Source: Dimargaris cristalligena
Taxonomy: Eukaryota
Direction: 5' to 3'
DNA length: 46,038 nucleotides
Assembly: GCA_003614675.1 (NCBI GenBank)
Contig: ML002296.1
Coordinates: 1-46,038 of the forward strand
Positions within the stretch are counted from its first letter, which is position 1. The number at the start of each line of letters is the position of its first letter. This document shows positions 1,534-45,936 of this stretch, piece after piece. The notes beneath the pieces are model-generated. The model was not told the origin of the DNA. It saw only the letters and a list, made by a program, of their open reading frames with translations, and searched no databases. Both the position numbers and the translations under genes were made by a program.

Positions 1534-4402
1534 CTAGTGAGACGCCGTGGTGGCTGTCGATGATAGGGATTCGACGGTGTGGGTGAGGGGCGAGCACGGC
1601 CAACTGGGTAATGGCTGGCTGGCCCAGTACTGGGTATCGCGTAGTTTACTGGACGACCGGTGGAGATTCTTCACCAACCCTTTTGGTGGTGTCGGATCTA
1701 ATAGGTTAATATGGGTAGTAGAAATGCTCCCTCGTAGAGAACCCAGCATCTGGGGGAACCGGGCCTGGGAGGGGGGCCGCCATAAAAGGTCGAAATTCCC
1801 GTTGACGGGGGTGGATGGGACCGACTGGGATACGTCGCTGATCAGCTGGGATTTCGGAGCAAAGCCCGGCAGGGCCCGGCGGTACCAGGTAAATTTGGGC
1901 GAAGCGCGGGCGGGGCTCGGTGAGGAGTTGGGATTGGTTTGCCGGACAATGCTGGGCGACGGGGGGAAGGTGGATGAGGGCGGGGGAGGAGGGGGTGGCT
2001 CTTTGCGAGTACCGAATAAACCGGCCATCTTCCGGGCCAGGGTGCCATATGGAGTGGAAGGGCGGCTTTGGGGCCGGGGGTGGGAATCGAGATTGTTTTC
2101 CTCCAAGACTAACCGGGCGAGGGCGGACGTCCACCGTTCCTTAACGGGCAAGGGGGAGGTGATGGTGGCCACGGGCGTGCCGTTGATGACCAGGCTGAAG
2201 TCGCACGAATGGGGACACGAGACCAGCTGAACCTTGCTTAAGGAAATATGACTGGTGGCCAAGGTCCACAGCGGGGCCAGGTCCGGACTGTCCGGCTTCC
2301 ATTCGGCAGTGGGGGTAGCTAGGCAGACGAGTAAAAAACTAGGGAGTAGCACCAGGCGAACCCGGGTGTGTTGGGAAGTAATGTCGGATATGGAATTGCG
2401 GAATACTTTGCGTATGCTGAATACCTGGTCCAGTAAAACCAGTTGTTTAGGCATATACCAAGGGCCGTCAGCCTCAAGGGCGTCAATGAGGGTGATTTCC
2501 GACGATGAATCGCACGACGACCCGATGCTTTGATTGATGAACAGGGAGTTGGGGTTGCCTAATAATTTGTACATGGCCTTGGACCCCGCCCCACCCAGCT
2601 TCTTGGACAGATCAATTTCGTCCAGGCGGAAGAACCACCGCTGCCAAACGGCCACATCCTCAAAGACCCGCGAGGTAATGTCCACCAACTCCTGCACCTG
2701 TTCGACTAGGGTAGACGTGGCTGGGTCCTCAGGGGATTCAACCAGGGCCCGGAGGCTGGTCACATAGGAGGTAAGGCGAAGGGCAGGGGTGGGTAGCTGG
2801 CACTGCCAGTGGGTAATACCAATGTGGGGGTCAGCTGCAGAACTTGGGAGGCCCAGCAGGCGGAGAACGCGGGGCTGATGCAGCAAATCGACGAATTGGG
2901 ACATGGCTTGGACGTAGCGGTTGATGTAGATGCGGTACGCCGCGGCCATTTTATTCATAGTATCAAGAAACTTGCTCCGGAGAAGCTGATCGGTAGGATC
3001 TTCGTACCGAGTATCAGTGGCCGACTGGTACATAGTCATAGCGAGTGAGCAAGAGAACAGTAGGGAACGGATAGGTAAGTACGCGTATAAAGGGTAAGTA
3101 GGGGCTATAATGTTAAGCTTATGCGAGTGGGAAAAAATGATTGGCAGGACTGAGGGGGTTCGGGCCAACTACTGGGAATGAAGAAGCAACTTACCGTCAC
3201 GAAATCAACGACCAGGTTGCGAATGTCCTGTACAGACTCAAACACTAGCGCGAGTGATTTGGCTTGAACGTAACCGTAGTCGCGTAGGGGGCGAATGGTG
3301 TCCTGATTGGCCAGTCAGGCATATTGTAAACAGTCAGTAGAAATAAAAGAGCGGGGTTAATTAGTACAAGTTAGTGGAATATATATCAGGTAACAGTGGA
3401 GGATTCTGGCACACTCCTCGCACCCTCCGCTTCTGGTAAGATGAGCGCATCCTACCGATTTGGATGATGAACCATAAGGGCAAGATTGGCGTGTGCAAAG
3501 TCCGCCTGGAACCAATAGCGCTAGTGCAATACTGTCCGTGGGCTAAGAAAATATACTCAACTGCATCTAGACAACCGTGCACCAACACAGACTCCCCTTT
3601 ATGGTAAGCCGATGCGAGAATCCTGATGCTTCGGAGCAACTCGCAGGCCTAATCATTGGGCGGGTGGAATGCCTTGGAAGAAGTAGGCGGAGTTCTACCA
3701 CCGAGTACCCTCTCGCGTAGAATGACAATGAATCCCCGCCCACCTATTTACTCGTCAGGACCGCATGGGCCAATAATCAGATCTTTGGGTATTCAATGAG
3801 ATACACCCCCTTCACCAAAATATTTCTGTATGCTTACCCTGACACATTCTTCGAGGCGATTGGCATAAGTTTCTTCATCTTCTAGGAACGAGTCCCAGTT
3901 CCATAGCTATTATGAATTGACGAAGGATGCCCACATACGGTTATGATAGAAAACAAACCAGGGTAGATAGAAAGCGTGTTTTGTAATTAGCCAAGCAGTT
4001 ACATGGGTCGATGGTCAGGATGGTAGGACAAAGATTGGGCATAAAAGAAATTATACATGGTTAAGAAACTGGAAATCAACTGATGGAAAAATGGAATAGC
4101 AATCCCGATGGTAACCCTGCCCTCATGTTTACAGATATGGCAGTGCTGGCCAGGGGGGGGTGGCCTGGAAGTTTTACAGTTCTTGGGTGTAGGCTATAAG
4201 TAAACGACTCGCCAAAGCCGGGTCCATACTCTGTACGAAATCCAGGCAGAACCGGCTACTACATAAACGGTGCGCCAACAAATAGATAGCCAGGCAGGAT
4301 TGATGGAATGGCAGAACAAGCCCGCCCATAGACATGTGTGGATAATCCAGTGGTTATGGATAGCTATGCCGAGTTACTTACCGGTGTTATTTTGTTATTC
4401 AT
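1534..4402 (-). CDS. Rho-family guanine nucleotide exchange factor-like protein (DH + PH, Pro/Ser-rich tail), 4 exons, ~562 aa
   Basis: Exons 4402-4382 (MNNKITP|GTAAGT), 3906-3838 (LWNWDSFLEDEETYANRLEECVR|GTAAGC), 3302-3195 (DTIRPLRD...LVFESVQDIRNLVVDFVT|GTAAGT) and 3024-1534, all phase 0 with YAG acceptors. E-x-x-Y-x-x-x-L, IRPL...VF-x-x-V-x-x-I, Y-x-x-YINRY and P-x-x-RL-x-x-Y match DH conserved regions; a PH-like segment follows. Confidence 0.7.
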
Positions 4403-4694
4403 GCCTGTTGTGTATGTGATGGTGCGACGGTCAAACAAAGAATGGTCGACTGGCTTTCTTAAAAAATCAAATGTTGAGGTTGAGGTCGAGGTAGTAGGAA
4501 GACCAGGCACTGAGAAAATGGGGGGGCCAAACGGTGGAATAAGTGAGGGGAGGAAGCAATTATTTTAAAAGGCTGTGAATAGCGGTGGGGGAATCGCACA
4601 CCAAATAGACGGCACCCTGGATAAAAGTAGTGATATTGAAAGTGGGTGACTGTAGTGAAGAAGGTGTGAGAGTAAAGGGAGGCGGCGAGGGGAA

Positions 4695-4701
4695 TTTTAT
4701 A
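4695..4701 (-). promoter_or_regulatory. TATA box upstream of the RhoGEF-like gene
   Basis: TATAAAA on the minus strand followed by a pyrimidine-rich leader, ~300 nt upstream of ATG 4402. Confidence 0.4.
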
Positions 4702-4999
4702 GAGTGCTCTCAAGGAGGGGGGAGGATTGACCAAGTTTTAAATAGCCCACCGGAGAGTATGGAGAGCGGCTGAAGCCAAGCGGAAGAAAAGGAGGGGAAG
4801 GAGGGAGCCAAAGAACGCCAGGGCTATACTGAAAAATAATGAGTGAACGGGTCAGAGGCAACCCAGTGGGATTCGGTCAGGCTATACTGAGAGAAAGCAA
4901 GCGAAAACGAAAACAGCGGCGGCCCGGGACCAGGGGCAAAGAAGTGGTGCGGGTGGGCCGGAAAGGGCAGCAGACGCAGAGTTGTGCCGGGTAGCGACT

Positions 5000-6600
5000 G
5001 ATTTAGAAAAAGAGTTAAGGAGAGGTCAAGTAGCTATCACAAGGGGGAGCGTGAGAGGGGGGAGAGAGAATAACAGTCGAAATTGAAACTATCGAAAGAG
5101 ACAATGGCAGGTTCTGATCGAATTATTAGGAGTGGCTGGATCAAGTGCCCCAAGTCAGGAGAATGGGTGAGGAGAATACGCTGAGGCCTGGCGAATAATG
5201 GGTGGAAGCAGGGAGAGACGGAATCAATAAAAGGCATATCCAGCGGGAGTGATTCCAGAAGGTACACAGACACTGAAAATAATGAAAACAACAGTCAAGT
5301 CTACGGAGGGGAGGGGGGGACCATGGAATAGGCCAGGCATGTGCGGGTAATAAGAGCAACGTAGGACAATTTCCACGTACACACGTCAAGCATGGGCAAA
5401 TGAAAAATGCAGAAAGGCCGTGGTCGCTCAGGCGGGAAATGAGTCTAGCGAGCGGTATGCTATGGTATCGTATGGAATAGAATGGGCGTTCCACCTATGG
5501 TATTCCGGAAGGGGATGCGGCTCGTTTACCAAATGGTAATGGGAATGGAGTCGGTAACTAAGATATTAAAAGTGCTCGAGCGAACGCTCTCCTGGAACGC
5601 TCTCGAGTGAAGAGATGGGGGAGAGAGAGAGAGACAGAGAAGAGCTGTAGTAAAGCTGATGGGCAAGCCGCAGAAACAGGGCTCCAGCGACGTTACCGTT
5701 GAGGGTTGGGGCGGGTAGAGTGTGAGGCAAGACGCATAAGAAGGCAAGGCGCGAGGGGGCGGACAGTGAAGTGACTGCTCGCGTGGACGTGGATGCGTGG
5801 AACCAGTCTAAAAGTAAACGAGTTTGGTCAGCAGTGGCAGCGAAGAAATTCAAGGCACTGGGGAAGAGAGGGGAGAGGACGAATCGGGTTGAAGGATCGC
5901 CTACTAATCGAAGTTTCAAGGTGATGCAGCCGGGATAATAGCAAAGAGAGACCAGTGGGTGGTATATACGGGGGGAGGGAGTGGTAAAGTGCCCAGGTGA
6001 AGTGGAGCGTTGAGGATATAGGTAAATGGAGTTGGGGGGGAGCAATGAAGAGCCAGACCGACGCAGAGAATAATGCAGGGGAAATGATGTTGCCGCCTTG
6101 GCCAGGGTGGTAGGAGAGTCGTTGTAATGTCAATGTAGAAATGCCAAGTTCCCCTTGGACAAGTTAATCGGGGTGCGTAAGGAAATACGGAGGCTATGGG
6201 GGCAGAGAGAAGGGGTTAGTTGTAAGTTGGAAACTACCGGCATACCAGGCGGGGACTATCGGCCCTTTATAGCCCATAGCTAGATGTCCATCTGGGTTGG
6301 CGGGGTTGATCCAGGCCCCAAATTGAACGGGTCCACCAAATATGGACGAATCTAGTGTTTTTGGGTAAGGCCGATATTGTTCCAACGAAGCACAGACGAC
6401 GGTGGAAGAATTCCGCGGGTGTTGAAGTGAGAACTAAACCCAATGGCAATCCCCAACAATTCACCGCTGACCTGTGAGAGCGGGGATGGGATTTCCTAGC
6501 CCGGAAGACAAAACCTATGTACCCGGGCCAGCGAAGAACAAGCGGTGAGGCCCCCCACACAGGGCACTTTCCCACCTATTCCACCGCCATACTCGCCGTT
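5000..6600 (-). mobile_element. Heavily decayed non-LTR retrotransposon (LINE ORF2, post-RT part); boundaries approximate
   Basis: Broken minus-strand frames give, in the expected order: LRWPGYIGF (cf. RYLG), RRLCFVGTISALPKNTRFVHIWW (cf. RxLSxxGRxxLxxxxxxSxLWY), QGELGISTLTLQ (cf. GGLGI) and WKLSYVALITR...ESLPLDMPF (cf. zf-RVT). Many stops and frameshifts. Confidence 0.45.
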
Positions 6601-9600
6601 GCTATCTAACGGGGAAGGTAGGCTCATTTTACAATCACTTAATGCAGATGCCCAGCCAAGACTTGCCATCAATTTGCTCAAGGGGAATTCGGAGGAGGCA
6701 GGCCAGCGCATGATTTCGTGGACAACATATTGTATCCGGCTACTTAGAGATTAACAAAATACCCCAACATACCAGGGGTGTAATTATACCCAATTACCCT
6801 ATGGCATAACCCAGCGAATACCTGAAGGCTCGTCGCTAGCTTCCATATAATTACCAACATAGCTACGCTCGCCATCCGATAAAGACAAATGTAGGCCCAG
6901 TAGAGTGGATGTTGATTGGCTAGTTGCTTGTTTTCTAAAATGTAGGTGCACTTTGATCCAGTGAGGGTGAAACAGGGTTAGAGTGAACCCCGCTCTCTTG
7001 TGGTATAATGGGGGAAGCCGACTACCGCACTGAGCAAACCGAACTGTACTTGGCCCTTTTTCTATATATCCTTATTATTGAGTGTGCAGTGGGCCAGCGC
7101 TAAGATGGGACCAGGAACCACAGAGAGAAGTAGTAGTAGTAGTGATGAATATCACATTTGGTAATAAGCACCCACGATCATTTAGAGTATGGATAGGTAT
7201 GTGTTGCTATTGAGTCAGCTGTAGCTCCCACGGAATTATGACTAACTGTGGATAACACACTAACTAAAGGTCGTTTCGTAGGCTTAGTCAACATGTTCCC
7301 AGGCAAAGGGTGCTAGCGTAATTTCCAAAGAAGGTCGACGGGTTAGAAAATCCCCTCCTCCCCAAAGCCTTTGGACATTAAAAATTACGGCTGTTACAGA
7401 GCGGACCGGGCTAATGGATACGGGTGCTGAATCGTGTCAAAGTAGTATAATAGGAAGAAATCAGTGAAAAGCACCATAGTGACGTGGGTAGGTAAATACT
7501 GTATTTGAACTACCTCAAAGAGCTAAGACACGGGGTCTTGCCAGAAAGAAAGCGGATTTTTTTTTTGCAAGTGCATACGCCGGTGTTTAGAAGGCTCTTT
7601 CGAGCATACCGATCGAGAATCTTAAGTTGCTGATTTAAATGGAGTCTTATCGCCAAAGTGGCTTTAGTATTGGTGGGTTAGCCAATATTACGTGGTTATT
7701 TGCATTTCCAGGGGCAGTCGACTTACAGCCCCAGCGGGGATGCTATGCTTCGAGCCGAGTTTTAAGTGAACCGAACAGCGTTCAGTGCTGCGCCGTGGCT
7801 AACATTGTCGGCAAAACACGTTATTCAAAGTCAGCGAGGCTGTTACACCGTACAACGAGTGTTATTGTAATAACACTTTGGATTGGACTTGAGGGCCATA
7901 CTTCTCAGGACTGGGTTTCTTTACACTAGTTATTTTCGCACCAAGGTATAGTAAAGGGAGACCAAGTTAGATTCACATGCCCGCACTCTCCAAAAAATAA
8001 AAACCCTTTGTGGCTGGCCGTGCGATAGTTGGGAAAGGCCAGCTTTCAGTGCACTGGGAAACAGATGCCTCTGAAATACGCTGTCTTTAAATCCCTTTTG
8101 ATGATATTTCCCAAACAGTACGCCATCCTAGGTCAGCTACATTTGGGTTCAGGGGTGAATTATTTTTAGCAGCCCGGATATAATAATTTTCATGTTGGCA
8201 GTCCTCAACTGTATGGGGTAACCCTGGTCGTTAAATTGTCTACCTGGTCGCCTCACACTCGTAATTGGGGGAGCGGTAGTGTTGAAGGAAAATAGTGGGG
8301 AAAAGATTGGGGGAAAAATAATTGCCCAATGCACACAGCTGTTGCTTGCAAGTACGCTTTAACAGGCCACTGCAACCGCGGTTGATTGGAATGAACGACG
8401 CTAGTTAGACGTGATACACTATCCCCGCCCAAAATGGTAGAGGTTTGTCCGTTAAATCCCCGATTAGGCCCCCGTAGCGATCATTATGGGAGGGCGTCTG
8501 ACGTCAGTACCCGGTGTACTCAATTTAATATAGAGGGTAAATTCAAAACCAAACTAACATGGGTAGAGCCCGCATTACATTGCAGCTATTTTGGGCAATG
8601 TTTATATTTGAGAATCCAGGTATTTCATTGAGCTGGGTTATAATGCTTTATCAGGAAGGGGACCATTGCTCTATCGGTACAGTATCTGTAGAGCCGGCTT
8701 CGATTTTTCGACTGAACTAGCACCCATGTCATGAGTGGTCTGGTCATAATGATGTTCACGGCTCAGATAATTCAATCGCGTGGGTATCTATCAGCGGTTC
8801 ATCCTTTGGATTGACGGCTCGTTACGCCGGTTTATCTGATTGTGATGAATTAACCGGGGAGTTTATTTTTATCTCGCCGTTCCCACCTGCCGCATGGGTA
8901 ATCTGCAACAAACCGTGTCTATAAAAATATTTACGATGTATCCGGTGGGGTGAGTGTGGTCGGGTGAACTCGAGGACAATAAGCAGGGGTCAGTTCGAAT
9001 ATAATAAGTATTAGTGGCTACGGGAAGATGCAACAGCCACTGTCTCAGATGCACTTCGCTGAGCTCCTTTGTATATACTGCCAGTTGGGATGAACTACGC
9101 ATTGGTGCTTGCAATTGTATGTGGGCATTTAGTTTGGACAGAGTGGCATGGCAACTCGAACCCGTTTCCCACCTCCGCCCTTTTTACCAATATAACCGCC
9201 AATTTACATAATCACAGCTTCGTCAGTGTTTATGGGAACACCTATCACCTATACCTTTATATATGGGTCTATCTGTGTTGAATAAGTATAGATTTAACCC
9301 CACTATAAAGGGGATCCCGAGTGGATTTGGCTTTGCGAAGTAGCCTGTACTGGAAGATACTATGTTTAAAGCCAGGGGGCGGTTACCGAATGCCAGCTGT
9401 AAAATATCTCAAATAAGATGGTAGAATGTATCACCAGTTGGGTCATGTGCCCCCCCCCCAAAAAAAAGAACAGGTTTACTAAACTACGGTCTCAATTGAA
9501 AATGGTGATCATCTGGGCTTTGCGCATATTAAATAAAGACTGGTTGAGTATTAACGAACACCGTAAAACCCCCATCAGAGTGGTGATGGCTGATACCTGC

Positions 9601-10223: not shown

Positions 10224-11266
10224 CAAATAGATAGGGCGAGATTACATTGAGATGGCTCATTTAATGTCCCAACCGCCGAGAGGTATTGGGGGCGGAATCG
10301 GGGAATAATTGTAGTAGTGGATGCCTTGAAATAATTGTAGCGGACTTGGCTTGCACCTCCTCCTCTCTTTCCAACTGTATTTTTTCACCTGGCTGCTTAA
10401 ACCTGGACAGATGCTGACGCTTGTGGAGTGGGAGGAGGGGGTAGTGGTATTCAAAAGCGCAAGGGTAGACCAACCACCAGACCCGTGTTTGGTCGATCCC
10501 TCGATAAAAGGAAAGGGGGTTGGGGCATTATTAAAGAGACCATACTGCTGAATGGATCGGTATGACAATACTCTAGCCGGCACTGTGTTGGGCTGTATTT
10601 AATCTTGGAGAAATGATTGATGTTGCAGTTGCGGGTGTAAAAGTTGAGGGGGGGGGCACCTATTATTACTCCATCGGTACTATGGCTGTTATCATCACCC
10701 CTTTGGCGATAATGGTGGAGACCGAAGAGCTATTGGTAGATGGGGATGGTATCGAACCATCAGAGATAGTAGAGGCATCAGCTGTTTTGGAATAAAACAT
10801 AAGCTAAAGAATGGAGCGAGAATAGCTTATATTATAAATGACCAGAGATATCCATCAAAAGAGAAATTATATGTTGTTTACAAAGCCATTTATTATTGAA
10901 CATATTTTTAGGCAAGGTTCCTGAATTGGCAAGCGAACCAGGCAAGTTATAAACAAAACATAGTGAGTTTCTTCGAAAAGGGTTCCCCGGAAAGGGGCCA
11001 TAAAATAACTAAATCAATATTATATTTTCATTATACAATCTAAATAATTGGACATCATCGATTCCATCGTACTGTTTATCGGCTGAACTGGTAGCGGAGC
11101 ACTAGCGGTCGATAGTGAAACATTTCACGGCACTGTATTTTACCGTTGATAATATTTCTGTGAGTTGGCTGATGATAGGAGGGGCGGTATGGCTTCTTGT
11201 AAATCCCCATTGGTACCATAACCATCCCTGCCATCGCCCCCGACCCTATGCAAACTACTGTTATTG

Positions 11267-11914
11267 CTATCCTTCGACACCCGGGAGCCGTACGTTGCTG
11301 CGCTTGATTTCTTCTGCCTTTGACTGCCAGTTCTTGTCATAACCCGCGAATCGGTCCGAAAATTTACCCGCCCAATTGGCCGCACGTCCGACCGTCTGTT
11401 GCTTAACACGTTGAGTCAAGGAAGGTTGGCCGGTATTCTTCTCCTTCGCCGGGAGATACCATCTACTCCACGGGGTAGTAGTGGCGGTACTTGGGGTCGC
11501 ATTAGACCCGTATCGAAGGGCGAATCGATCGGCCCCATGAGCGAGCGAACCCAGCGTCTGCTGTTTAAGCTTCTCCCTCCGGCTATGGACCGCCCATTCC
11601 TGAATGGCCTCCCGGGATTTGCGGAACTTCTCGGGTCCATTGAGGCGGTAAAAACCGGCCTTCGTATGGAAGTGATTGTTGTTTATGTCCACCGACTTTA
11701 ATTTCCGGCCCCGCTCGACTCGGTGGAGCGTATTGAGAAATTTGTGGGCTTGGCGAGCGGACTTTTGCATTGCTTCTTTGGTAGGTAATTTCTTTTCGTC
11801 GGCGGAAGACTGTGTAGGGCCACGAACGCTCTCGGCGGCAGTGGCTTGGGATGGGACCACCGTGAGGGACCCGATAAGGGTCACGAGAAGGGCGCACCAC
11901 AGTACGGTTCGCAT
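11267..11914 (-). CDS. Secreted, basic hypothetical protein (215 aa) with an internal ~20-aa repeat
   Basis: Good start context (accgccATG), hydrophobic signal peptide MRTVLWCALLVTLIGSLTVVPSQATA, intronless and K/R-rich; no family recognised. Confidence 0.75.
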   Translation of the reverse strand: MRTVLWCALLVTLIGSLTVVPSQATAAESVRGPTQSSADEKKLPTKEAMQKSARQAHKFLNTLHRVERGRKLKSVDINNNHFHTKAGFYRLNGPEKFRKSREAIQEWAVHSRREKLKQQTLGSLAHGADRFALRYGSNATPSTATTTPWSRWYLPAKEKNTGQPSLTQRVKQQTVGRAANWAGKFSDRFAGYDKNWQSKAEEIKRSNVRLPGVEG

Positions 11915-25591: not shown

Positions 25592-27458
25592 TGCGACAAC
25601 AAACTGGGAGGGTAATGGAGGGCGGAACAGCAGCAGCAATGGTGTGCAAAGCCCGAGTACTGGCAAAATACGGAGAGAAGGATGGGGGAAAAGAGTGAAA
25701 AGGGCTCGGTTGCTTTTTGAAATGCCTCGATCTGCTTGAGGGCCACTTCGGTTTAGGTGGTACCAACTCAACTGGGCCAGTGATTTTCCCTATTCTGGTA
25801 AATTGGCCACAGTGGGATGAGAAAAAATAGGGCCTTGGAAAAGGTCTCAGCATCAGCCAATCACATAGTTGGATGCTAATCTAGATATTACGGGGTGTTT
25901 TTTTTAATGGTTTTTTGCATTCAGCCGTATTATATGGTATTTCCTTATCAGGTACTTAGATGGATTATTTCCAAAGATAAGCTGATAATATACTCAATAT
26001 ATACTGACAGTATACGCTATAGATTTAACCCTCGGACAAGCACTGAGACGGAACCATCTTATTGAATTTCAATTTTACCTAGTCCGGTATGAAGGAGCTT
26101 GTAAGTTGTAGCTTAAATTGGTTTAAGGACTAAGTCATCGATTCTGTGCCAAGTCTTTGGGTAAAGGATTGACATGATGTGGGCAAAACAATGTTGGTGT
26201 GGCCTATTAATAGGCATTCGAGTATACCCACTGGCCCAACGTAACAGTCCTTTAAACACCGATCAATAACTGCAACTTAATTAAATGGCGAGTTTGTTTT
26301 GACCCTTATATAGATTGGCCCGCCATAATTCTGATGGGCTTAGCTTAAATGACATCACTCATTACAGTAGCATTGGAGGGATTCTATAATGAATCCGATC
26401 TACCCTTCGCCAGTTCAAGTAGGCCAATTAATCGCTAAGGGAATGGACCAGTGGATACAATGGCACCCTAAGCCCCAACGAGTTTACATAGCCACAGTCC
26501 CTTTGGCAAGAACCCCCCGGAGGGGCTTGGTAAAGTACAATCAATAAGGGACCCGGATGTGGCATGAGGAACTATCGCCAATCCCTTTGTAAATGGGATG
26601 ACTGAGCATTCTAACCCCTGTTTATCAGTGTACACCATTCTCGGGTGAATAGCCCTCCTGCTCGTATTCTCCTGTACTGAAGCTCCATTCTTTAGCCCGA
26701 CCCATAATTATCATACAAATAGAAGTAGGCACAGTTGACCGGAATGTCCCTAAATCTCATTAAACCTACAGGTTACGGTAACCGATTGTTGGGTGTTCAC
26801 TGAATGAAGCAGAAGGGGGGGGGTGCTTTTAGCCCTCTTTGCTATGAGCGAGGTAGTGATTACCCATTATGTCCGCCCGGCACTTCGTTTATACATATTT
26901 GCCTCCGACGCTTCGTACAAACGGGCCGATCAATGCTCAATGTGGCTTTTGCCCCCCTTGATTCCAACTTCGGCCCCATGCATTAGGAATTGTTGAATAA
27001 ACAATTATTATTGAATCAGGGGTGGGCGGTATAACCAATACGGCCCTATAATGGGGAATACAAGCCTGCGCTTTTTTAGGCCTCGCTGGTCAGCTGCCTG
27101 CACCCCCCTGTAAATACGCACGCTTCAAGGTATCTGGTATTCCCTTTCAAGATATCATCTGTGAACACTCCTTTCACATTTGGGCCTTCCCATCTGAACT
27201 GGAGCCTTGAATATATTTTTTTCCGCCGCACCCCCTTCAACCCGCCCCTTCACTTCATTCTCACAACCAGTCGATTCATTTACCCTGCGGAAATTATAAA
27301 AGCGACCCATCTGCACACTCTGCTAAATTATCAACCCTACTTGCTTCAACCCTTTGCCCCTATTATCCCCTACGCCGGTCGTCAAATTTCCTTTCACGCT
27401 GTACTTCTTACCGCATCGCCACTACTCTTACTATCTTATCATATATATAACGTCCAAA

Positions 27459-28112
27459 ATGCTCAAGTCTATTTTAGTTGGCTGTGCCGTCACCATCCTG
27501 GCTCTGACCGCCGGTTCGGCCAGCGCTCTACCCACCGCCACCAGTCCATACAACAGCGACAAGATCGTTGACCAATACGGGAGCGCCTTTAGCGAATTTT
27601 ACCGCAACTCCACTGAGTATGTCAACATCAACATCTGTACCAGCGGCAAGCCCACGGGCACCCGCCGAGTAACCAAGCCCTTTGCCGAAAGTCTGGCCCA
27701 GCTCGGGTCGGGCCGCTGGAACGGCCAGGAATGGTACACCGTGGTGGAGGGCAAGTCCGCCACCAAACCCTATGGCTGCTATGCCCGCACTGGCTCCGCC
27801 ATTGGCCAAACCGGTAACGTCCTCTTCCCGTACGCCAGTGCGGCGTCCGCCGACTTTAATCTGGGCGATCACGTGTACGTCAAGGACCTGGACGGCATGC
27901 CCGTCAACGCGGTGCAAAAACATAATGGCTGTTTGGTGATCGAGGGCCAGTTCACTAACCCCAACAGTGTTGCCATTTACATTTTTTCCGCGGAGAACCG
28001 CTACTTCTTTGAGAAATTCAATCAACAATCGACCCATCGTGTCGAAAAGAAGGACTGTAAGCCCATCACGGACTACGCCTTTGCCTTGACTGACCCCTCC
28101 CATCATATTTAG
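27459..28112 (+). CDS. Secreted 3D-domain/MltA-like protein (217 aa), catalytic Asp residues apparently replaced
   Basis: aaaATG at 27459, signal peptide, strong C-ending codon bias. Motifs L-x-PYAS-x-A, G-x-x-VYV-x-x-LDG and HNGC recall 3D-domain proteins. Confidence 0.7.
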   Translation: MLKSILVGCAVTILALTAGSASALPTATSPYNSDKIVDQYGSAFSEFYRNSTEYVNINICTSGKPTGTRRVTKPFAESLAQLGSGRWNGQEWYTVVEGKSATKPYGCYARTGSAIGQTGNVLFPYASAASADFNLGDHVYVKDLDGMPVNAVQKHNGCLVIEGQFTNPNSVAIYIFSAENRYFFEKFNQQSTHRVEKKDCKPITDYAFALTDPSHHI

Positions 28113-31100
28113 TAATAATTCGCATTCCGACCACTAGATGGAAACCCATTCCACGGTGTATATTACTTGTTTGGTATGAGGGTAGGTCCTTTTGCGGGTC
28201 GAAAGAAAAACCATATCCGGGCCCCCCTATTCAATAAATCTGTTTTTTTTAGTAGTACCAATCCATAAGTGTATGTGGATATTGGCTGGTGGCATTATTT
28301 GTGGGAAAATGCCACCGAATGCGAGTCAGCAAACCCAAGCCTGTTGCTGCACATTAAACGCCCCACGGGAGGGGTGGTGATATATACGCAGTTATACGCC
28401 AGGAGGGCACCAATCCGCAATGAAATCAATTGCAGACTAACCATGCGCTGCCGGTGATTGAATTGCAGTTAACACAAGACGACAAGGGGGCGTATTAGAT
28501 TAGACATAACTGAAGGCGCGGTATTAGCGAGGTGCGCATTTCTACCGATTTTTAAAAGAGCTACATAGGTACCTCGAGTTTAACACTTTACTACCCCCCA
28601 GATCCTTTTGTTATAGCCAGACAATAATTATTTGTACTGGATGCCCGCCCTACCCTATTATAGCTTTTATTCAAACCCGAAGGCACAACAATGCGATCCC
28701 TCTGCATTCCTGGGACGGGGTGTAAAGGAATAGTGCTGATACTGATTGAATAGGAATAACCCCCAGACGCTGAGGGAATATAAAAACGTACCCCACCATC
28801 CCCCTCCTGACTCAACGCAAGCATAGGGAATTCGCCCCTTTACAGTTTATCTTCCCAAGATATTAATCTAGAGCAACGCGGAAACATCCTGATTCTGTAC
28901 GGCTGCATTAAATATCCTTTAGGAATAGTGGTAGTTTCGCAAAAAGTGGGATCAAACGTATGAAATTTCCTAAGAAACTGGTCTCTTTCAATCGATAACT
29001 ACGCGCTGAACAGTAGGCTCAACCAACATTCTGACCCAGTAGAAGATAATCCAACTAAATAACCTGTAAATACTAGACCAATTGAACTAGTGCTTCGTAA
29101 GTGGTTCACTCTGTCGCAGCAAAGTGTGGGATATTGGCAACGATAATGCTACGCCATGGTCAACCTAATTGAACAATTTACCTTATGTCGAAAATAAAAC
29201 TACATACAGGGTATATAAACCCATCAGGCTACCTCTGAATTTCTTATCAATTGCACCACAATTACTATATAATTTATTTTAACGAACCGTATAATACTGG
29301 ACACTATTTCGTAATACTAAGTCACGTGTTTGACATGCATCCCTCAGGAATACCAGTGTCATATACCTTTCAACTCCCGAATAAGCACATTACTGCCTGA
29401 ACACTGGCAAAAAGACAGCCATTCAATTGCTCTGGTCCAAGCCACCTGGTTAATGCCCAACCATTCTTATGGAAATGACACCTATGCTATACTCAGTATA
29501 CCTGAAAATGGATGTATAAATTGGTATTTGCTTTAAGATTGTTCCCCCTTAAATTGGGTACCCTAATCTGGGGGGAGCAGGCATAGCCAATCTACTATTC
29601 CATGTGCGTCAACCCACCTCTTCCAAGCCCACCTGGTATATTCATTGGCGGACAGTACAATAAATATGGGATCGGTTTAATCTAATTGTAAATGAAAACA
29701 AGCTATTAATTAAATATGCATTATCAGCTAAAATATAATCGGCTGTCTTTATTACCATCTGTCATCTAAAGCCGGGTACAGTAGGATTGTATTACACCTA
29801 TAAAGTATTAAAATCATGGCATCAAGCCAACCGGGAATACCGTTCCTTATTAAGGCCATAAAACGAGCAATCCTGGGAATTCAGGTCCAATCGTTCCAAG
29901 CAAGTATTATTACAATCTCCACCGCACGATTGCCATCTAGTTTATTGACTTTATCATATTCTATATGACTGACAGTGGCCCGAACATTAGTCCTGTTGAA
30001 ACTATGCACCCCAGAAGGCAGGCGAGGCAATTCCATAAAAAGGGAGGGAGGTATTCTTAATCATGTATATAAAGCCATCACTATATACCTATGGCCCAGC
30101 AGTGGGTGCATTATCCGGAAAAATCATAATACCAATGGTATTGCTGATAGCGAATATGTATGAGCGCATTTAAATTAAGAAGGTCTCTTTTATTAATAGC
30201 AGTAGATATGAGGACACTAGATGATAATAGGCAGTAATAGTTTAATGGGCAGCGGATAGGATTAATAGTCATCTAAGGGTCCACATCAGGGTATCCTAAT
30301 GACCCGTTTTTATAGTGGAGTATTGATGTCCCTAATGTCTGGTGGTTCAATAGCCATGGGTGTAGTATGCACCTGTGGTGTTCTGGTGGGGACCCCCGGT
30401 CCATGGGGCCTCTGGTTGATACTAGGCACCTCCGGTGGTGCCGCATTAACAGCATAACATGAAGACTAGTCCAAGATACCAGCACACTGTTCAACCCATG
30501 AAGGGATGATATAGCCACTATACTAAACACCAGGCATACTTACTAGTACCTGTCCTAATTATCACGAGAGGCAAAAACCAAAAATAAATAAATCATAGTA
30601 ACTGAATTTAAATTATCTACCATAATTGTACTAGGGTGATTATCTGCAATTTCCTGTCCATCGGCGGCTACAATACATTGTTAAAGGTCTGAAGGCTTCA
30701 CCCTTCATATTAGGAGCACGGTGTTGGCCATTGTCCATGTTATGGCTAGCCTGCAGTCATTTGATTAGCAGTCCGGATAGTCGGGCGGAGTCCAGCTGGA
30801 TCCATCAGCAGCACAATATAGTGCCTGACCGGGATTGATATCCCTAAATAAGGCATATTGCCTTATTCACTGCAGGGTCTAATGTTCCTCACCTGTTTGA
30901 TTATTTTTGTGTAAGAATAGGCCCGATACTGTAGGATACTTTACTGAATAGTTATTGCAAATAGCCCATTTTGTAGAATAACCCACCTGTCAGGAAACCC
31001 CAGCCATAACCAAATCCCAGGAAGGGGTGCCATACACAGGGGATTGGGTCATAGCATCGATCCATTGTTCCTAGTTATACCCCAGTGACTGGTTTGAATG

Positions 31101-31324
31101 TTGAATGACTTATTGTTGGCTTCCATGTTGTAATATGAATCATTAACAAAGGGAATGGGTGGTCATGAATACAACTGCTAATACCATTCCTAATACCCAT
31201 TAGCAACTAGGACATTGTCTCCCCGATAAGTCAATGCAATAGAACTAGAACTGTAGTTTACTTTGCTGGGAGTGGTAGGGTCACCCTATATAGTACTTGG
31301 TTAATAAAACCCTTGGTTAAGCAC

Positions 31325-31333
31325 TATATAAAT
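31325..31333 (+). promoter_or_regulatory. TATA box of micro-ORF, copy A
   Basis: TATATAAAT; TATAAATAGCA is conserved in copy B (TATA at 44886-44880, minus). Followed by a CT-rich leader and ATG. Confidence 0.55.
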
Positions 31334-31471
31334 AGCAGACTGGAGGCCTCCCCCAATATTCCCTCATCATTTTTTAATAACCTGGATATCCTAATGTGCA
31401 AACCATCCCAAACTCTTTGCCACATATTGGTACATCACACCTCCTCTTTTCCCCGACCTCCCCCCCCCACA

Positions 31472-31693
31472 ATGGCCATTTCTAGGCCCTTTTTCCAACA
31501 GCCAGTGACCTGTCCACAATTATACAGGTCGCTTCCTGCAGTAATGCAGGCCATAAAAATATATATCCACCCCCAAGTGGGTGTTATGGGTAATCCTTCC
31601 TTTGTCCTGGGCAGGGATTGCCCAACTACCGAGCAGGACAAGCCCCTGTCTGATGCAGATAGGGGCTTGCCTATTGTACCAGCCACCGTATAA
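31472..31693 (+). CDS. 73-aa micro-ORF, copy A (unknown function)
   Basis: Same ATG, length and TAA as 44722-44501, with no indels. In the last 35 codons, 10 of 12 differing codons are synonymous. Confidence 0.55.
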   Translation: MAISRPFFQQPVTCPQLYRSLPAVMQAIKIYIHPQVGVMGNPSFVLGRDCPTTEQDKPLSDADRGLPIVPATV

Positions 31694-31726
31694 TACATAC
31701 CACGGTGGTGCCTGCCAATGAGCAGG
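31504..31726 (+). ncRNA. Candidate structured RNA (7 tandem hairpins) overlapping micro-ORF, copy A
   Basis: Stems at 31504-33, 31535-50 (GTAA loop), 31568-83, 31588-623, 31635-72, 31682-709 and 31711-26; largely retained in copy B. Confidence 0.5.
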
Positions 31727-32208
31727 TTAAATGTGTATTTAAATTTTCTTTCATCTAATAAATTTGTGTATAAAGTTGCTTTTCAATGGGGGGAATATGC
31801 CCTATTTATATTGACAGTTTTGTTTGACGGATATTGAAAAGTAAGTAGGTATATGTATGTTTTGGAGGTAGAATAGGATAAAAACAGGTGCTAAGGATGC
31901 TAATTTGAACTTTTTCATATCAATGACAATGGCATAGTGGCTGCGTGAAGGATAAAGGGACTTTGGATGAGACCCTTTGATAGTCTTGATGTAAATTATT
32001 GAACTGGCTGGTTGAAAAAGCCACACTGTCTTTCATACTACTAGGTTGAATAGTGTATTCCAATTGAGGTGTTTTTCCCAGTCATTTCTTTACTTTATCC
32101 ACGGTATGTCAGTGTCCTATTGGAATGAGTTTTGTTAATAGCTAATATTACATGTATCATCAACCGGTCGGTATTTTATTACCCTATTTCTAGTACAACT
32201 GTAAATTT

Positions 32209-32352
32209 ATATGGGCGAAATCCGACCCAGCTGTATAAGGTTTTTAATGATAAGTGTATGTGATAATATATGGGAGATTTACTTTTAACCGGTTATGTTT
32301 TCTTCATCCAGCGGATTTTTCATTATACAGCTTAGTTGAACCTCTCCCATAT
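32209..32352 (-). mobile_element. 144-bp MITE-like element inserted in repeat copy A
   Basis: ATATGGGCGAAAT...AACCTCTCCCATAT; same length as 10080-10223; absent at the homologous site of copy B (~43985-43995). Confidence 0.8.
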
Positions 32353-32874
32353 ACATTTAGCACTTTTATAGCAATTCTACGGTGTCTATAGCCACTCCAA
32401 CCAATGGCTACTATCTGACTTCTGTGACGGGATTGTGTTTATGGAATATTACTCGGTGCCAGCTCACTTTTTCGAAATATGGGCCAGATTTGGCTACATA
32501 ATATACCAAAGAATCCGCTTGATGGATTCGTTTTACTTGGGGGGTTTTATTATTCATGTTGTATTTCAATTCCTATGTGGCTTTGTTTAATTTCACACAT
32601 ACTCTATTTGCTTGTTGAATGGAGAAACACCCATTTCGTAAATATCTTCCAGGCTGAAAGTGTAATGAATGCAAGGGGGGTAAAATACTAATCATGGCAA
32701 TGTGGTAGTGGATGCGATCGCCTTATTTCAACCGCATCTAAAATTATTTTGAGGTTTAACTAACATTCAAAAAATAGACAGAGGAAAGGCCATGCAAAGC
32801 CCTGATTCCATTACACATTCATATTCTAGGCCGAGGCATTGCTTTTTGACTTGCTTCCCTTTCTTTCACCTTCT

Positions 32875-43794: not shown

Positions 43795-45936
43795 AGTAAA
43801 GTTAGTCCACCAGCCAGATTTTTTGATATATATAGTGGGGCTGAATTGGGCTCATAATTCAAAAGATAAAGTAACGCCAATGAGAGATCTTCCGTCAATA
43901 CAACACGGTCACAAAAATAGGAAAAATGGCTACTAGTTGGAGCGTAACTATAGACAGTATAAAATTACGATAAAAGCGCTATATACACGGCCATTTTACT
44001 ATTGTATTTAGAAGGGGAAAATTAAATACCCTCTGAATGATACGCATAATACTGATAGTTACCAGAATCCCATTTCAATAGGACTAATACAATGCGTAAA
44101 CAGTCCAGAAAATACCAAAATTACCTCCTTGACAGGCATATAGTATTCAGCCTGGTAGTATGGAAGGTAGTGTAGTACTTTCAACCAGCCAGTTCAATAC
44201 TTCCATTCTAAACGGACAAAAAGCCTCATCCAGAAATACTATGTTCTTCACGCAGCCACTATGGCATTATCATCAATATGGAACAGTCCAAATCAATCGC
44301 CTTACCATCTCTCTTTATTCCATTCTATGGTCAAAATGTACATTTATGTATTAACTTATCATAAAATCACCAAACAAAACGGCCAATATAAATATGGCAT
44401 ATTCTCACATCGAAAAGCAACTTTATATACAATGTTTTTATAAAAATAATAATTATAATACACATTTAATCTGCTCATTGGCAGGCACCACCTTGGTTAG
44501 TTATACTGTGGCTGGTGCAATTGGCAATCCCCTGTCCGCATCAGACAGGGGCTTGTCTCTTTCTGTAGTTGGGCAATCCCTCCCCAAGACAAAGGAGGGA
44601 TTACCCTTAACACACCCTTGGGTGTCGATAAGAAGTTTTGATTCCTGCATTGCTGCAGGGAGTGATCCGCCTAGTATGGGACAGGTCGCTCGATCGGTGA
44701 AAAATGGCTTTGATGTGGCCATTTGAAAGATACGGGGGTGTGGAAATTGGGAAGAGGTGGAATAAGGAAAGAGGTGCCGTTGTCAAAAGTGTGGCAAAGA
44801 GTGAGGGATGATTGTTGTGTTGGGGCATCCAGGAAATTAAAAATGATTTGTGGATATTTGGGGAGGACTTTAGTATGCTATTTATACACCACTTTTCCTG
44901 TGGTTTTATTAACCAAGTGCTGGATTGGGTGGCCCCCTGCCCGCACCAAGTAAGCTATAGTTCTAGTTCTAATTTATTGGCTTATTGGGGAGACAATGAC
45001 CTAGTTGCTAATGGGTATTAGGAGTGGGTCGAGGAGTTGTATTCATGTCCGCCCGTTCCCTTTGTTGATTCAGTTTTGTAGCATGGAAGTCAACAATATG
45101 CCATTCGGCATTATAACTATGTGCTGGGGTATAATTAAGCACAATTTATTGATACTACGGCCCTATCCCTCACTTATGGCGCCCGACCCTGGGATATGAC
45201 CATAGATGGGACTTCCTGACAGGCGTTTTTTTCTACAATACATGCTATTTGCGATGACTATTCCGTGAAGCACCCTACAATGTCAGGCCTATTTTTATAC
45301 AAAGGTAATTATCCCGGTGAAAAAAATTAGGCCTTATAGTGGAAAAGGCTGCATACCTTATTTAGGGAGATTTATCCCCGTCAGTCACTACGATATACCG
45401 GTGATGGATCCGGTTGTACTCTACCTGACTAGCTGAACTGCCGAACAAATGGTCGCAGGCTAGCCATACCATGGACAATGTCGAATGGCATGCTCCTAAT
45501 AGGAAGGATAAAGCCCTCGGACCTTAAGCAATGTGTTATAGTGGTAGACGGACAGGGAATTCTGATTATCACCCTAGTATAATTTCAGTAGATAATATAA
45601 ATTAAGCGAGTGTTGTTTATCCTTTTTTCGGATTTTGGCACCTGTGCTAGTTGGGAAGGGTATAGCAAGACTGAATGGTACATGGCCCAGTAGCCGTATC
45701 TTGCTTACACGGACTTACTAATATGCTGGTATCCTGTAATTAGTCTTCGCGCTATACTATTGTTGCCGGGATCCTTCCGAATACCACTCCCGCTGCTAGG
45801 CCGTAGGTATATCTTGACAGCTTTGTTTATTATAATATGAATACTCCTTCCCCTTTTCTTTGGCATTGGTTTCCCTGACCCCTGAGCCTCGGAGTGCTAA
45901 AGGGATATATGTTTAGTCAACAGTCAGTCAAATAGG
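43795..45936 (-). repeat. Dispersed ~2.1-kb element, copy B (inverted relative to copy A)
   Basis: See copy A. Lacks A's ~30145-30460 segment and the MITE; interrupted at ~45938 by MITE pieces. Confidence 0.92.
44501..44722 (-). CDS. 73-aa micro-ORF, copy B (with overlapping hairpin array ~44468-44692)
   Basis: MATSKPFF...GNPSFVLGRDCPTTERDKPLSDADRGLPIAPATV*; caaATGG context and upstream TATAAAT. Confidence 0.55.
   Translation of the reverse strand: MATSKPFFTDRATCPILGGSLPAAMQESKLLIDTQGCVKGNPSFVLGRDCPTTERDKPLSDADRGLPIAPATV

Follow-up and report, generated by a model that had tools for sequence, protein, structure and literature searches.

Selected short open reading frames within a conserved RNA hairpin array in a dispersed fungal gene family

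In bacterial tmRNA, the tag frame is a short translated frame within a structured RNA; its stop codon lies in a hairpin loop, it has no AUG start, and the molecule includes a tRNA-like domain. The class I conserved-peptide upstream ORFs (CPuORFs), as far as they are covered in PMC4330380, combine a conserved stop position with a conserved C-terminus, a pattern that is linked to stalling at the stop codon. The amd motifs, as presented in PMC5640933, are located in the 5' leaders of enzyme genes and are accompanied by uORFs of 6-8 residues, and the account of ASH1 in PMC2872910 places three elements in the coding region and a further one that starts 7 nt before the stop codon. The gene family described here, in which a short ORF runs through an array of RNA hairpins, belongs to none of the known families tested and is apparently undescribed, no report of it having been found in the open-access literature searched.

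The window (the whole stretch of DNA analyzed, 46,038 nt) comes from a 30.7-Mb eukaryotic assembly, and its contig carries fungal housekeeping genes. The original prediction, made from the window alone, recognized two diverged copies of a structured RNA of ~223 nt. Copies A and B are homologous, but the shared stretch is far longer, with 73.1% identity over 1642 nt (30448-32061 vs 45761-44135): copy A occupies 30448-32061 (+) and consists of about 1 kb of non-coding upstream sequence, the gene and an AT-rich downstream region, with ragged ends, and copy B occupies 44135-45761 (-). Nor are there only two copies. When the genome was searched by DNA, by protein and by pattern (27, 66, 50, 58, 55 and 28 matches; 0 with the reversed-pattern controls), the merged matches amounted to ~77 dispersed loci on 67 contigs, a lower bound in which truncated and degenerate copies are counted; 60 distinct copies with the 3' motif were gathered from 62 matches after 2 identical duplicates were dropped. 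Copy A is covered with few differences by contigs of DNA runs from two studies (runs X1-X3), and one independently assembled contig (run X2) links the vicinity of copy A with a diverged copy that is as far away as copy B, so that the locus is not an assembly artefact. The gene beyond copy B is convergent with it. Elsewhere in the window, an ORF with a signal-peptide-like start and without a Pfam match (27327-28112, +) is located directly upstream of the copy A flank, and a 55-nt direct repeat with 96% identity (1-55 and 1445-1499) is found close to the contig start.

An intact unit consists, in this order, of a TATA box, an ATGGC start, an ORF of 56-76 codons, and two terminal hairpins followed by UUAAAUG. 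In copy A, these are represented by the TATA box at 31327-31334 (+; TATAAAWA) and the ORF at 31472-31693 (+; 73 codons plus TAA, start context ATGGC), with a candidate poly(A) signal AATAAA at 31757-31762 (+) in the AT-rich 3' region; in copy B, by the TATA box at 44879-44886 (-), the ORF at 44501-44722 (-; 73 codons plus TAA) and stems 6-7 with the tail at 44463-44514 (-), where model R1, for which copy B is a training sequence, gives a match of 68.7 bits. The TATA box is conserved: 39 of 56 copies have TATAAAWA at a distance of 240-400 nt before the stop-stem, compared to 8 of 147 control windows. AATAAA, a weak signal, lies no more than 100 nt from the motif in 29 of 57 copies.

The start, the open frame and the position of the stop codon are strongly selected, and the peptide sequence is moderately selected, chiefly in its last ~26 residues. 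Among the 45 copies with a candidate start, 35 have an intact ORF of 56-76 codons, with lengths that differ by whole codons (e.g., ~15 codons are absent in frame from ten ORFs) and peptides of mostly 58-74 residues, and the start is ATGGC in 28 of these 35. In 59 of the 60 copies (58 until the re-anchoring of one copy), the stop codon occupies a single fixed site, as TAA in 32, TGA in 21 and TAG in 6, and never as TGG; the triplets beside it are stops in at most 7 copies, and the tree requires 17 parsimony changes among the stop codons. The frame is open for more than 50 codons in 42 of 58 copies versus 3-10 of 58 for the five other frames, and control frames in the flanks are open in 0-8 of 48-57 copies. 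When pN/pS was scanned in all six frames across the 2-kb core, in one clade of 12 copies and another of 18, values below 0.72 were obtained solely in the ORF frame and its antisense shadow; for the ORFs of copies A and B, pN is 0.174 and pS 0.39. Across 19 sister pairs, in which apparent selection could reflect unsampled master copies or gene conversion, the dN/dS of the ORF is 0.70 (Fisher p 1.4e-6), with 0.42 in the C-terminal part as against a near-neutral 0.96 in the N-terminal remainder; the same pairs show 5 stop-creating differences compared to 24 expected, and 3 indels in 3000 sites of the ORF versus 14 in 2745 sites downstream.

No main ORF follows the family ORF, and therefore a stand-alone bifunctional transcript is favoured. 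Longer coding units were considered and rejected. With regard to readthrough or frameshifting of the antizyme type, there is no conserved extension: the post-stop frames 0, +1 and -1 have medians of 22, 11 and 13 codons (maximum 60, 37 and 68), and the spacer between the stop codon and stem 7 varies by 1-2 nt among the copies, which was counted against a frameshift cassette. Reinitiation at the AUG of the tail would give ORFs of just 1-36 codons, with no downstream coding signal. A decayed long ORF in the flanks was likewise rejected: all six frames contain shared upstream stops, just 17-24% of the indels are multiples of three, and pN/pS is ~1.

Seven consecutive stems had been proposed for copy A, and the sequence 31504-31735 (+) indeed folds into these stems, at -104.8 kcal/mol (z -7.17) and with none of 200 dinucleotide shuffles as stable; z is -5.19 for copy B and -3.92 for the minus strand of copy A. 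Codon-preserving controls lead to the same result, in that the ORF bodies of all 44 open copies (broken copies left out) fold better than the dinucleotide, synonymous-resampling and synonymous-permutation controls (mean z -3.9, -2.7 and -3.1, respectively). In 16 copies examined, no extra structure was detected in the flanks, the structure being confined to the ORF and the motif.

Five of the seven stems are located inside the selected ORF. Stem 1 (31504-31533, +) is clade-specific, with 77.3% of the cells paired in 15 copies of its own clade, and its codons are missing from the 58-residue subfamily. Stem 2 (31535-31550, +; CCUGCA/UGCAGG) is 77-91% paired, depending on the pair, in 57 copies, and 4 of 23 copies of the other clade show a C-G to U-A double change. 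The GNRA loop reported for this stem is present in copies A and B, but across the family only 29 of 58 loops match GNRA, with NNRA in 54 of 58; the same letters make up the codons A-V or A-M. Stem 3 (31563-31584, +), which spans the H-P-Q-x-G codons, has an irregular register in copy A, and the homologous helix is 89.9% paired in 23 other-clade copies; for stem 4 (31587-31624, +), the other-clade helix is 93.5% paired, with double changes at 5 of 10 pairs. Stem 5 (31631-31675, +) pairs in a clade-dependent register: that of copy A is 80% paired in its own clade and weak family-wide, and an alternative register is 87.7% paired in the other clade.

The 3' end of the array is the best conserved. 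Stem 6 (31682-31709, +) pairs the last codons with the 3' UTR and holds the stop codon (31691-31693) in its loop, with only ~17 nt lying inside it; stem 7, with a 6-nt loop, and the conserved single-stranded tail UAAAUG occupy 31710-31733 (+). In 58 distinct copies (excluding one that carries an 8-nt insertion), 95.4% of the cells of these two stems are paired. The pair 31685:31706 of stem 6 ranks first among 19,521 column pairs by MI-APC, other structure pairs being absent from the top 30, and by eye on the tree it changes once from A-U to U-A and once from A-U to G-C; independent changes from C-G to U-A, also read by eye, number three in stem 7 and two in stem 6. Between sister copies, stems 6-7 and the tail accumulate 0.044-0.075 differences per site (0.057 and 0.044 for stem 7 with the tail) versus 0.23-0.26 at neutral sites. 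The distance from the stop codon to the start of stem 7 is 16 nt in 50 of 60 copies and falls within 14-17 nt in 59. The stop codon is in a predicted loop in 44 of 60 copies, and the same is true of 17 of 60 control stops; this geometry is not rare in controls, and therefore it is its conservation, not the mere geometry, that carries weight.

In the 23 copies of the other clade, six hairpins (stems 2, 3, 4, 6, 7 and the alternative 5) are 92.8% paired, with 12 double-change pairs; none of 500 shuffles scores as high, and slid controls reach 33-48%, figures to be read with the facts that the fit of the structure drew in part on this very alignment and that the shuffles ignore relatedness. The full structure of copy A, in contrast, is 80.4% paired in the 15 copies of its own clade, and 383 of 500 shuffles reach its covariation score. 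Because the own-clade score does not exceed that of the shuffles, the A-versus-B examples from which covariation had originally been deduced are not proof on their own; support for the claim comes from the other clade and from stems 6-7. As to the strand, for which the original prediction had relied on wobble pairs working only downstream of the TATA box, 10-12 of 15-16 copies, depending on the segment folded, have z-scores that favour the plus strand, but in 32 of 44 copies it is the minus strand of the ORF body that has the lower raw MFE. Of the 8 variant cells at the closing G-U pairs of stems 6 and 7, 5 have A-U or G-C, which fits the plus strand. The data support a conserved, covarying and unrecognised RNA structure that follows a conserved TATA box. 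A search of Rfam 15 yields 0 matches at threshold in the window and 2 sub-threshold matches (E 5-9), away from the motif, for 8 family loci. The hairpin array is real, and the original prediction is partly supported; with five of the seven stems inside a selected ORF that it had missed, the array is probably a translated structured RNA rather than the plain non-coding RNA of that prediction.

A tentative explanation of these observations, to which we give somewhat less than an even chance, is a dispersed family of host micro-genes with bifunctional, coding and structured, transcripts, in which translation termination toggles a 3' RNA module. RNA polymerase II would make an mRNA of ~0.45-0.6 kb from the TATA box, and the ribosome would start at ATGGC, pass hairpins 1-5 and terminate within the loop of hairpin 6, where the fixed stop lies. 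Given the size of the ribosome footprint, a terminating ribosome needs stem 6 open and would leave stem 7 just outside. Reaching the stop codon would require melting of hairpin 6, with hairpin 7 and the UUAAAUG tail, 16 nt on, remaining just outside the ribosome, and the RNA would have two states, an untranslated one with hairpin 6 closed and stacked on hairpin 7, and a terminating one with hairpin 6 open. The switch would control the fate of the RNA or the peptide (stability, localisation or ribosome pausing), probably aided by the conserved C-terminal ~26 residues in the exit tunnel. The copy number, the selection on the ORF and on the structure, the conserved TATA box, the geometry and the mosaic flanks are observed; that the genes are transcribed and translated is inferred, and the switch, any stalling and a biological role of the family are predictions of the same kind. 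The family would have spread by duplication of 2-5-kb segments at the DNA level, along with non-allelic recombination that exchanges pieces, and about a quarter of the copies are now broken.

The distribution of the copies bears on the main alternative, less probable than the micro-gene family, namely that the family is a non-autonomous transposon-like unit or a drive-type selfish family, its ORF being translated in cis so that a helper recognises the RNA, its 3' hairpins being the signal, and selection acting on many active lineages while most copies are decaying relics. The loci on the 67 contigs are located between unrelated genes, tandem copies are spaced 2.8-5.2 kb apart, recent copy pairs are 90-93% identical, and 16 of 58 copies are broken, all of which agrees with such a unit, as does the CpG observed/expected ratio of 0.35-0.56 in the family versus ~1.0 in two housekeeping genes, a depletion that resembles that of methylated repeats but does not discriminate between a host gene and a parasite. 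High-copy MITE-like insertions also gather in the family flanks (e.g., 32202-32359 in the copy A flank, outside the gene, with 37-nt inverted arms that are 78% complementary). This element has TA-rich ends and is inserted in the flanks of other family copies as well; most of the 755 genome-wide candidates for a 4.7-kb query come from this piece. A dispersed family with non-allelic conversion and pseudogenes, as observed here, is the pattern of the wtf drivers as described in PMC11497594.

Apart from the dispersed multicopy distribution, the hallmarks of a transposon were not found in the copy pairs, the unit and the neighboring ORFs examined. Homology within the family extends from about -1400 to +750 relative to the motif, and longer in subfamilies, with ragged ends that differ pair by pair; among 25 and 9 pairs inspected by eye, there are no common termini, inverted repeats or target duplications, although age may have erased them, and neither TIR or LTR nor target duplication or poly(A) tail defines an end. 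The gene is copied together with 1 kb of its upstream DNA, so that copying took place at the DNA level and simple retroposition is excluded. In tandem pairs, the partners are not mutual nearest relatives (e.g., the L067 partners are 80% identical compared to 93% to L066), which argues against LTR pairs, and the flanks are mosaic, with a single nearest neighbour across the upstream, core and downstream parts in just 8 of 45 copies (e.g., L046 is 93-98% identical to L055 in the core and downstream, yet 87% identical to L064 upstream). An autonomous partner or transposase was not identified in one unit, in the neighboring genes or through reverse transcriptase (RT) and Helitron matches, with many copies located at contig ends: one full 4.6-kb unit contains no Pfam domain in six frames, the 34 nearest long ORFs are unrelated, varied housekeeping genes or unassigned and lack a transposon domain, 1 of 80 RT matches lies on a contig with a family copy, 13 kb off, and the sole Helitron_like_N match of the genome is not beside a family copy. 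Finally, the selection visible between sister copies speaks against the alternative.

The genome searches yielded several observations on individual loci. The Helitron_like_N match (G000:C18:4795-5307) contains one internal TGA. A second high-copy element of ~840 nt is present in the spacer between two tandem copies (L010 ~4950-5800, that is, G000:C693 ~10950-11800). The 17-kb contig G000:C613 (L012, L013) starts and ends with a 4.9-kb inverted duplication of 99.2% identity that holds a family copy and is either a real inverted repeat or an amplification artefact. At L102:95-120 (G000:C96), near the contig start, stem 7 and the tail occur without stem 6 or an ORF, so that L102 is probably a truncated family copy. 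In the clade of copy A, what looks like a second small ORF, mostly broken, with a hydrophobic N-terminus and short internal repeats, is located ~2.2-3 kb downstream (L013 ~6700-7700; L010 ~4100-4950; also L009 and L019), with pN/pS of 0.45-0.65 from few sequences, and the family unit in this clade may be a two-gene cassette. A distant clade of five copies (L069, L070, L074, L081 and L135 on C637, C766, C1613, C948 and C786) retains the C-terminus of the ORF and the stop stem; the latter is differently worded (by eye), another 3' sequence replaces stem 7, and most of these copies are broken. Outside this genome, 0 homologous DNA motifs were found in viral contigs, and 3 metagenome matches to the DNA motif were rejected as lacking stem 6 and the ORF and lying in GC-rich, bacterial-looking DNA (best model score E 0.73). 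These matches (L097-L099 at ~2500) represent one shared GC-rich site, unrelated to the family, the flank of which presumably resembles the reverse complement of a tRNA/tmRNA 3' end and is perhaps an integration site.

A bolder version of the termination switch, which we hold to be rather improbable, is that the family represents a new class of eukaryotic element, a multicopy polymerase II RNA in which translation of the short frame would mainly serve to drive the ribosome to a hairpin-caged stop and so toggle the conserved 3' module; the RNA, not the peptide, would be active, either as a selfish locus-spreader or as an RNA exported by the parasitic fungus into its host.

The family could also encode ordinary small proteins, with the peptide as the product (e.g., an organelle-targeted or parasitism-related microprotein) and the hairpins as mRNA stability or localisation elements; a precedent is ASH1, with elements in the coding region and near the stop codon, at least as covered in PMC2872910. 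This is less probable still. The N-termini are basic and almost acid-free (10.8% K+R and 1.0% D+E in columns 1-25 of alignment A1), but most of this segment is absent from the 58-residue subfamily. Such N-termini presumably resemble mitochondrial presequences. In mostly unpaired codons, pN/pS is 0.89 and 0.81 for the whole ORF, and 0.19 (5 codons) and 0.65 (17 codons) for its C-terminal half; the lowest value, from the unpaired C-terminal linker, where the variation is largely synonymous, is what a functional peptide predicts, but amino-acid constraint is weak beyond the C-terminus, and the last 3-4 codons are additionally constrained by stem 6. In stem 5 of L060 and L089, the amino acids change along with compensatory pairing, and the peptide may in large part be a by-product of the RNA structure.

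Protein searches, too, argue against this explanation. A profile search with a 31-sequence alignment against near-length and longer proteins (41 near-length candidates) and a search with a single copy both found no homologue, and an HMM search of a full library of 1.84 billion representative proteins detected no genuine one: its 4 matches are tandem-repeat proteins scored over 3-13 stretches and were rejected as artefacts. The best scores in the ESM Atlas, 0.77 and 0.76, are under the lead threshold. Pfam matches, found in just 3 of 31 members and each singly, were rejected, as were, as chance, two matches of only ~20 residues to viral-contig proteins. AlphaFold2 predicts no fold (pLDDT 55.9, pTM 0.12).

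A much less probable alternative, to which little credence is given, is that the two hairpins of the 3' motif form a new self-cleaving or otherwise catalytic RNA responsible for processing the end of the transcript. The motif is the slowest-evolving part of the unit, with highly conserved unpaired CA before stem 6 and UAAAUG after stem 7 and with G-U pairs where two stacked helices meet; on the other side, stem 7 and the tail are lost in the distant copies, Rfam offers no match, and none of the hammerhead, HDV, twister and pistol patterns is family-wide. The hammerhead core consists of CUGANGA and GAAA around stem II, and a descriptor for it matches 0 of 58 copies on either strand. For twister, a loose descriptor (P4 loop with a T1 segment and AAGC, GA-T1' and UAA) matches 0 (+) and 3 (-) of 58 copies, compared to 3 shuffles. 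In the pistol ribozyme, which the hairpin-UUAAAU arrangement of the family presumably recalls, a 6-nt hairpin loop forms a pseudoknot with a partner at a fixed offset; for loop 7, the best offset is common to just 7 of 60 copies. In HDV-like ribozymes, P2, P3 and L3 are located inside P1, and the catalytic C follows P4. The architecture of these ribozymes is a nested double pseudoknot, as noted in PMC5640933. A descriptor of our own for it matches 3 (+) and 4 (-) of 58 copies, and the tail past stem 7 starts with U.

Similarly implausible is a pure non-coding RNA family with the ORF as a side effect of GC-rich stems: the folding and covariation are strong, and stem 2 overlaps with two invariant residues, P22 and Q26, but pairing cannot yield a fixed stop site with three codons, an ATGGC start, whole-codon indels and frame-specific pN/pS.

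If the bifunctional micro-gene interpretation holds, the ~77 loci would rank among the larger gene families of this 30.7-Mb genome, one that escapes standard annotation, with fewer than 100 codons and no homologue, as well as Rfam. Few eukaryotic examples combine selection on a start and a stop position with selection on a covarying hairpin array; the 60 natural variants amount to a ready mutational scan of how a hairpin stop couples termination to RNA fate. More generally, hairpin-rich 'non-coding repeats' of early-diverging fungi can conceal selected micro-ORFs.

Compared to the known systems, the family shares with tmRNA the stop codon in a hairpin loop; the two differ in that ARAGORN finds no tRNA or tmRNA in the window. 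With the fungal amd and SDC motifs, as covered in PMC5640933, it has in common a conserved fungal RNA structure that overlaps or works with a short ORF, but the family has 56-76 codons, ~77 loci, no regulated gene that was found and no Rfam match. The ASH1 localisation elements described in PMC2872910 are likewise stem-loops in a coding region, one of them across the stop codon; ASH1, however, is a single large yeast gene, whereas the family is multicopy. The resemblance to the wtf genes of Schizosaccharomyces pombe lies in the dispersed fungal family, conserved upstream DNA, non-allelic gene conversion and pseudogenes, but nothing resembling the poison and antidote isoforms of wtf was seen here, and PMC11497594, where it deals with these features, mentions no conserved RNA structure for the wtf genes. 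Class I CPuORFs and arrest peptides (plant CPuORFs, the fungal arg-2 uORF and the gpUL4 uORF) are similar as short ORFs with a conserved stop position and, in the family only probably, conserved C-terminal residues, to the extent that PMC4330380 describes them; unlike these, the family ORF has no downstream main ORF, belongs to a stand-alone multicopy gene, is covered by a hairpin array along its whole length and shows no sequence similarity to them. The bifunctional plant RNA enod40, in which RNA structure is better conserved than the short peptides (PMC1888808, for the aspects treated there), is not homologous to the family, which is fungal and multicopy and has a single, longer ORF that extends across the stems and whose stop codon is placed in a loop; as in enod40, selection acts on both the RNA structure and the short ORF.
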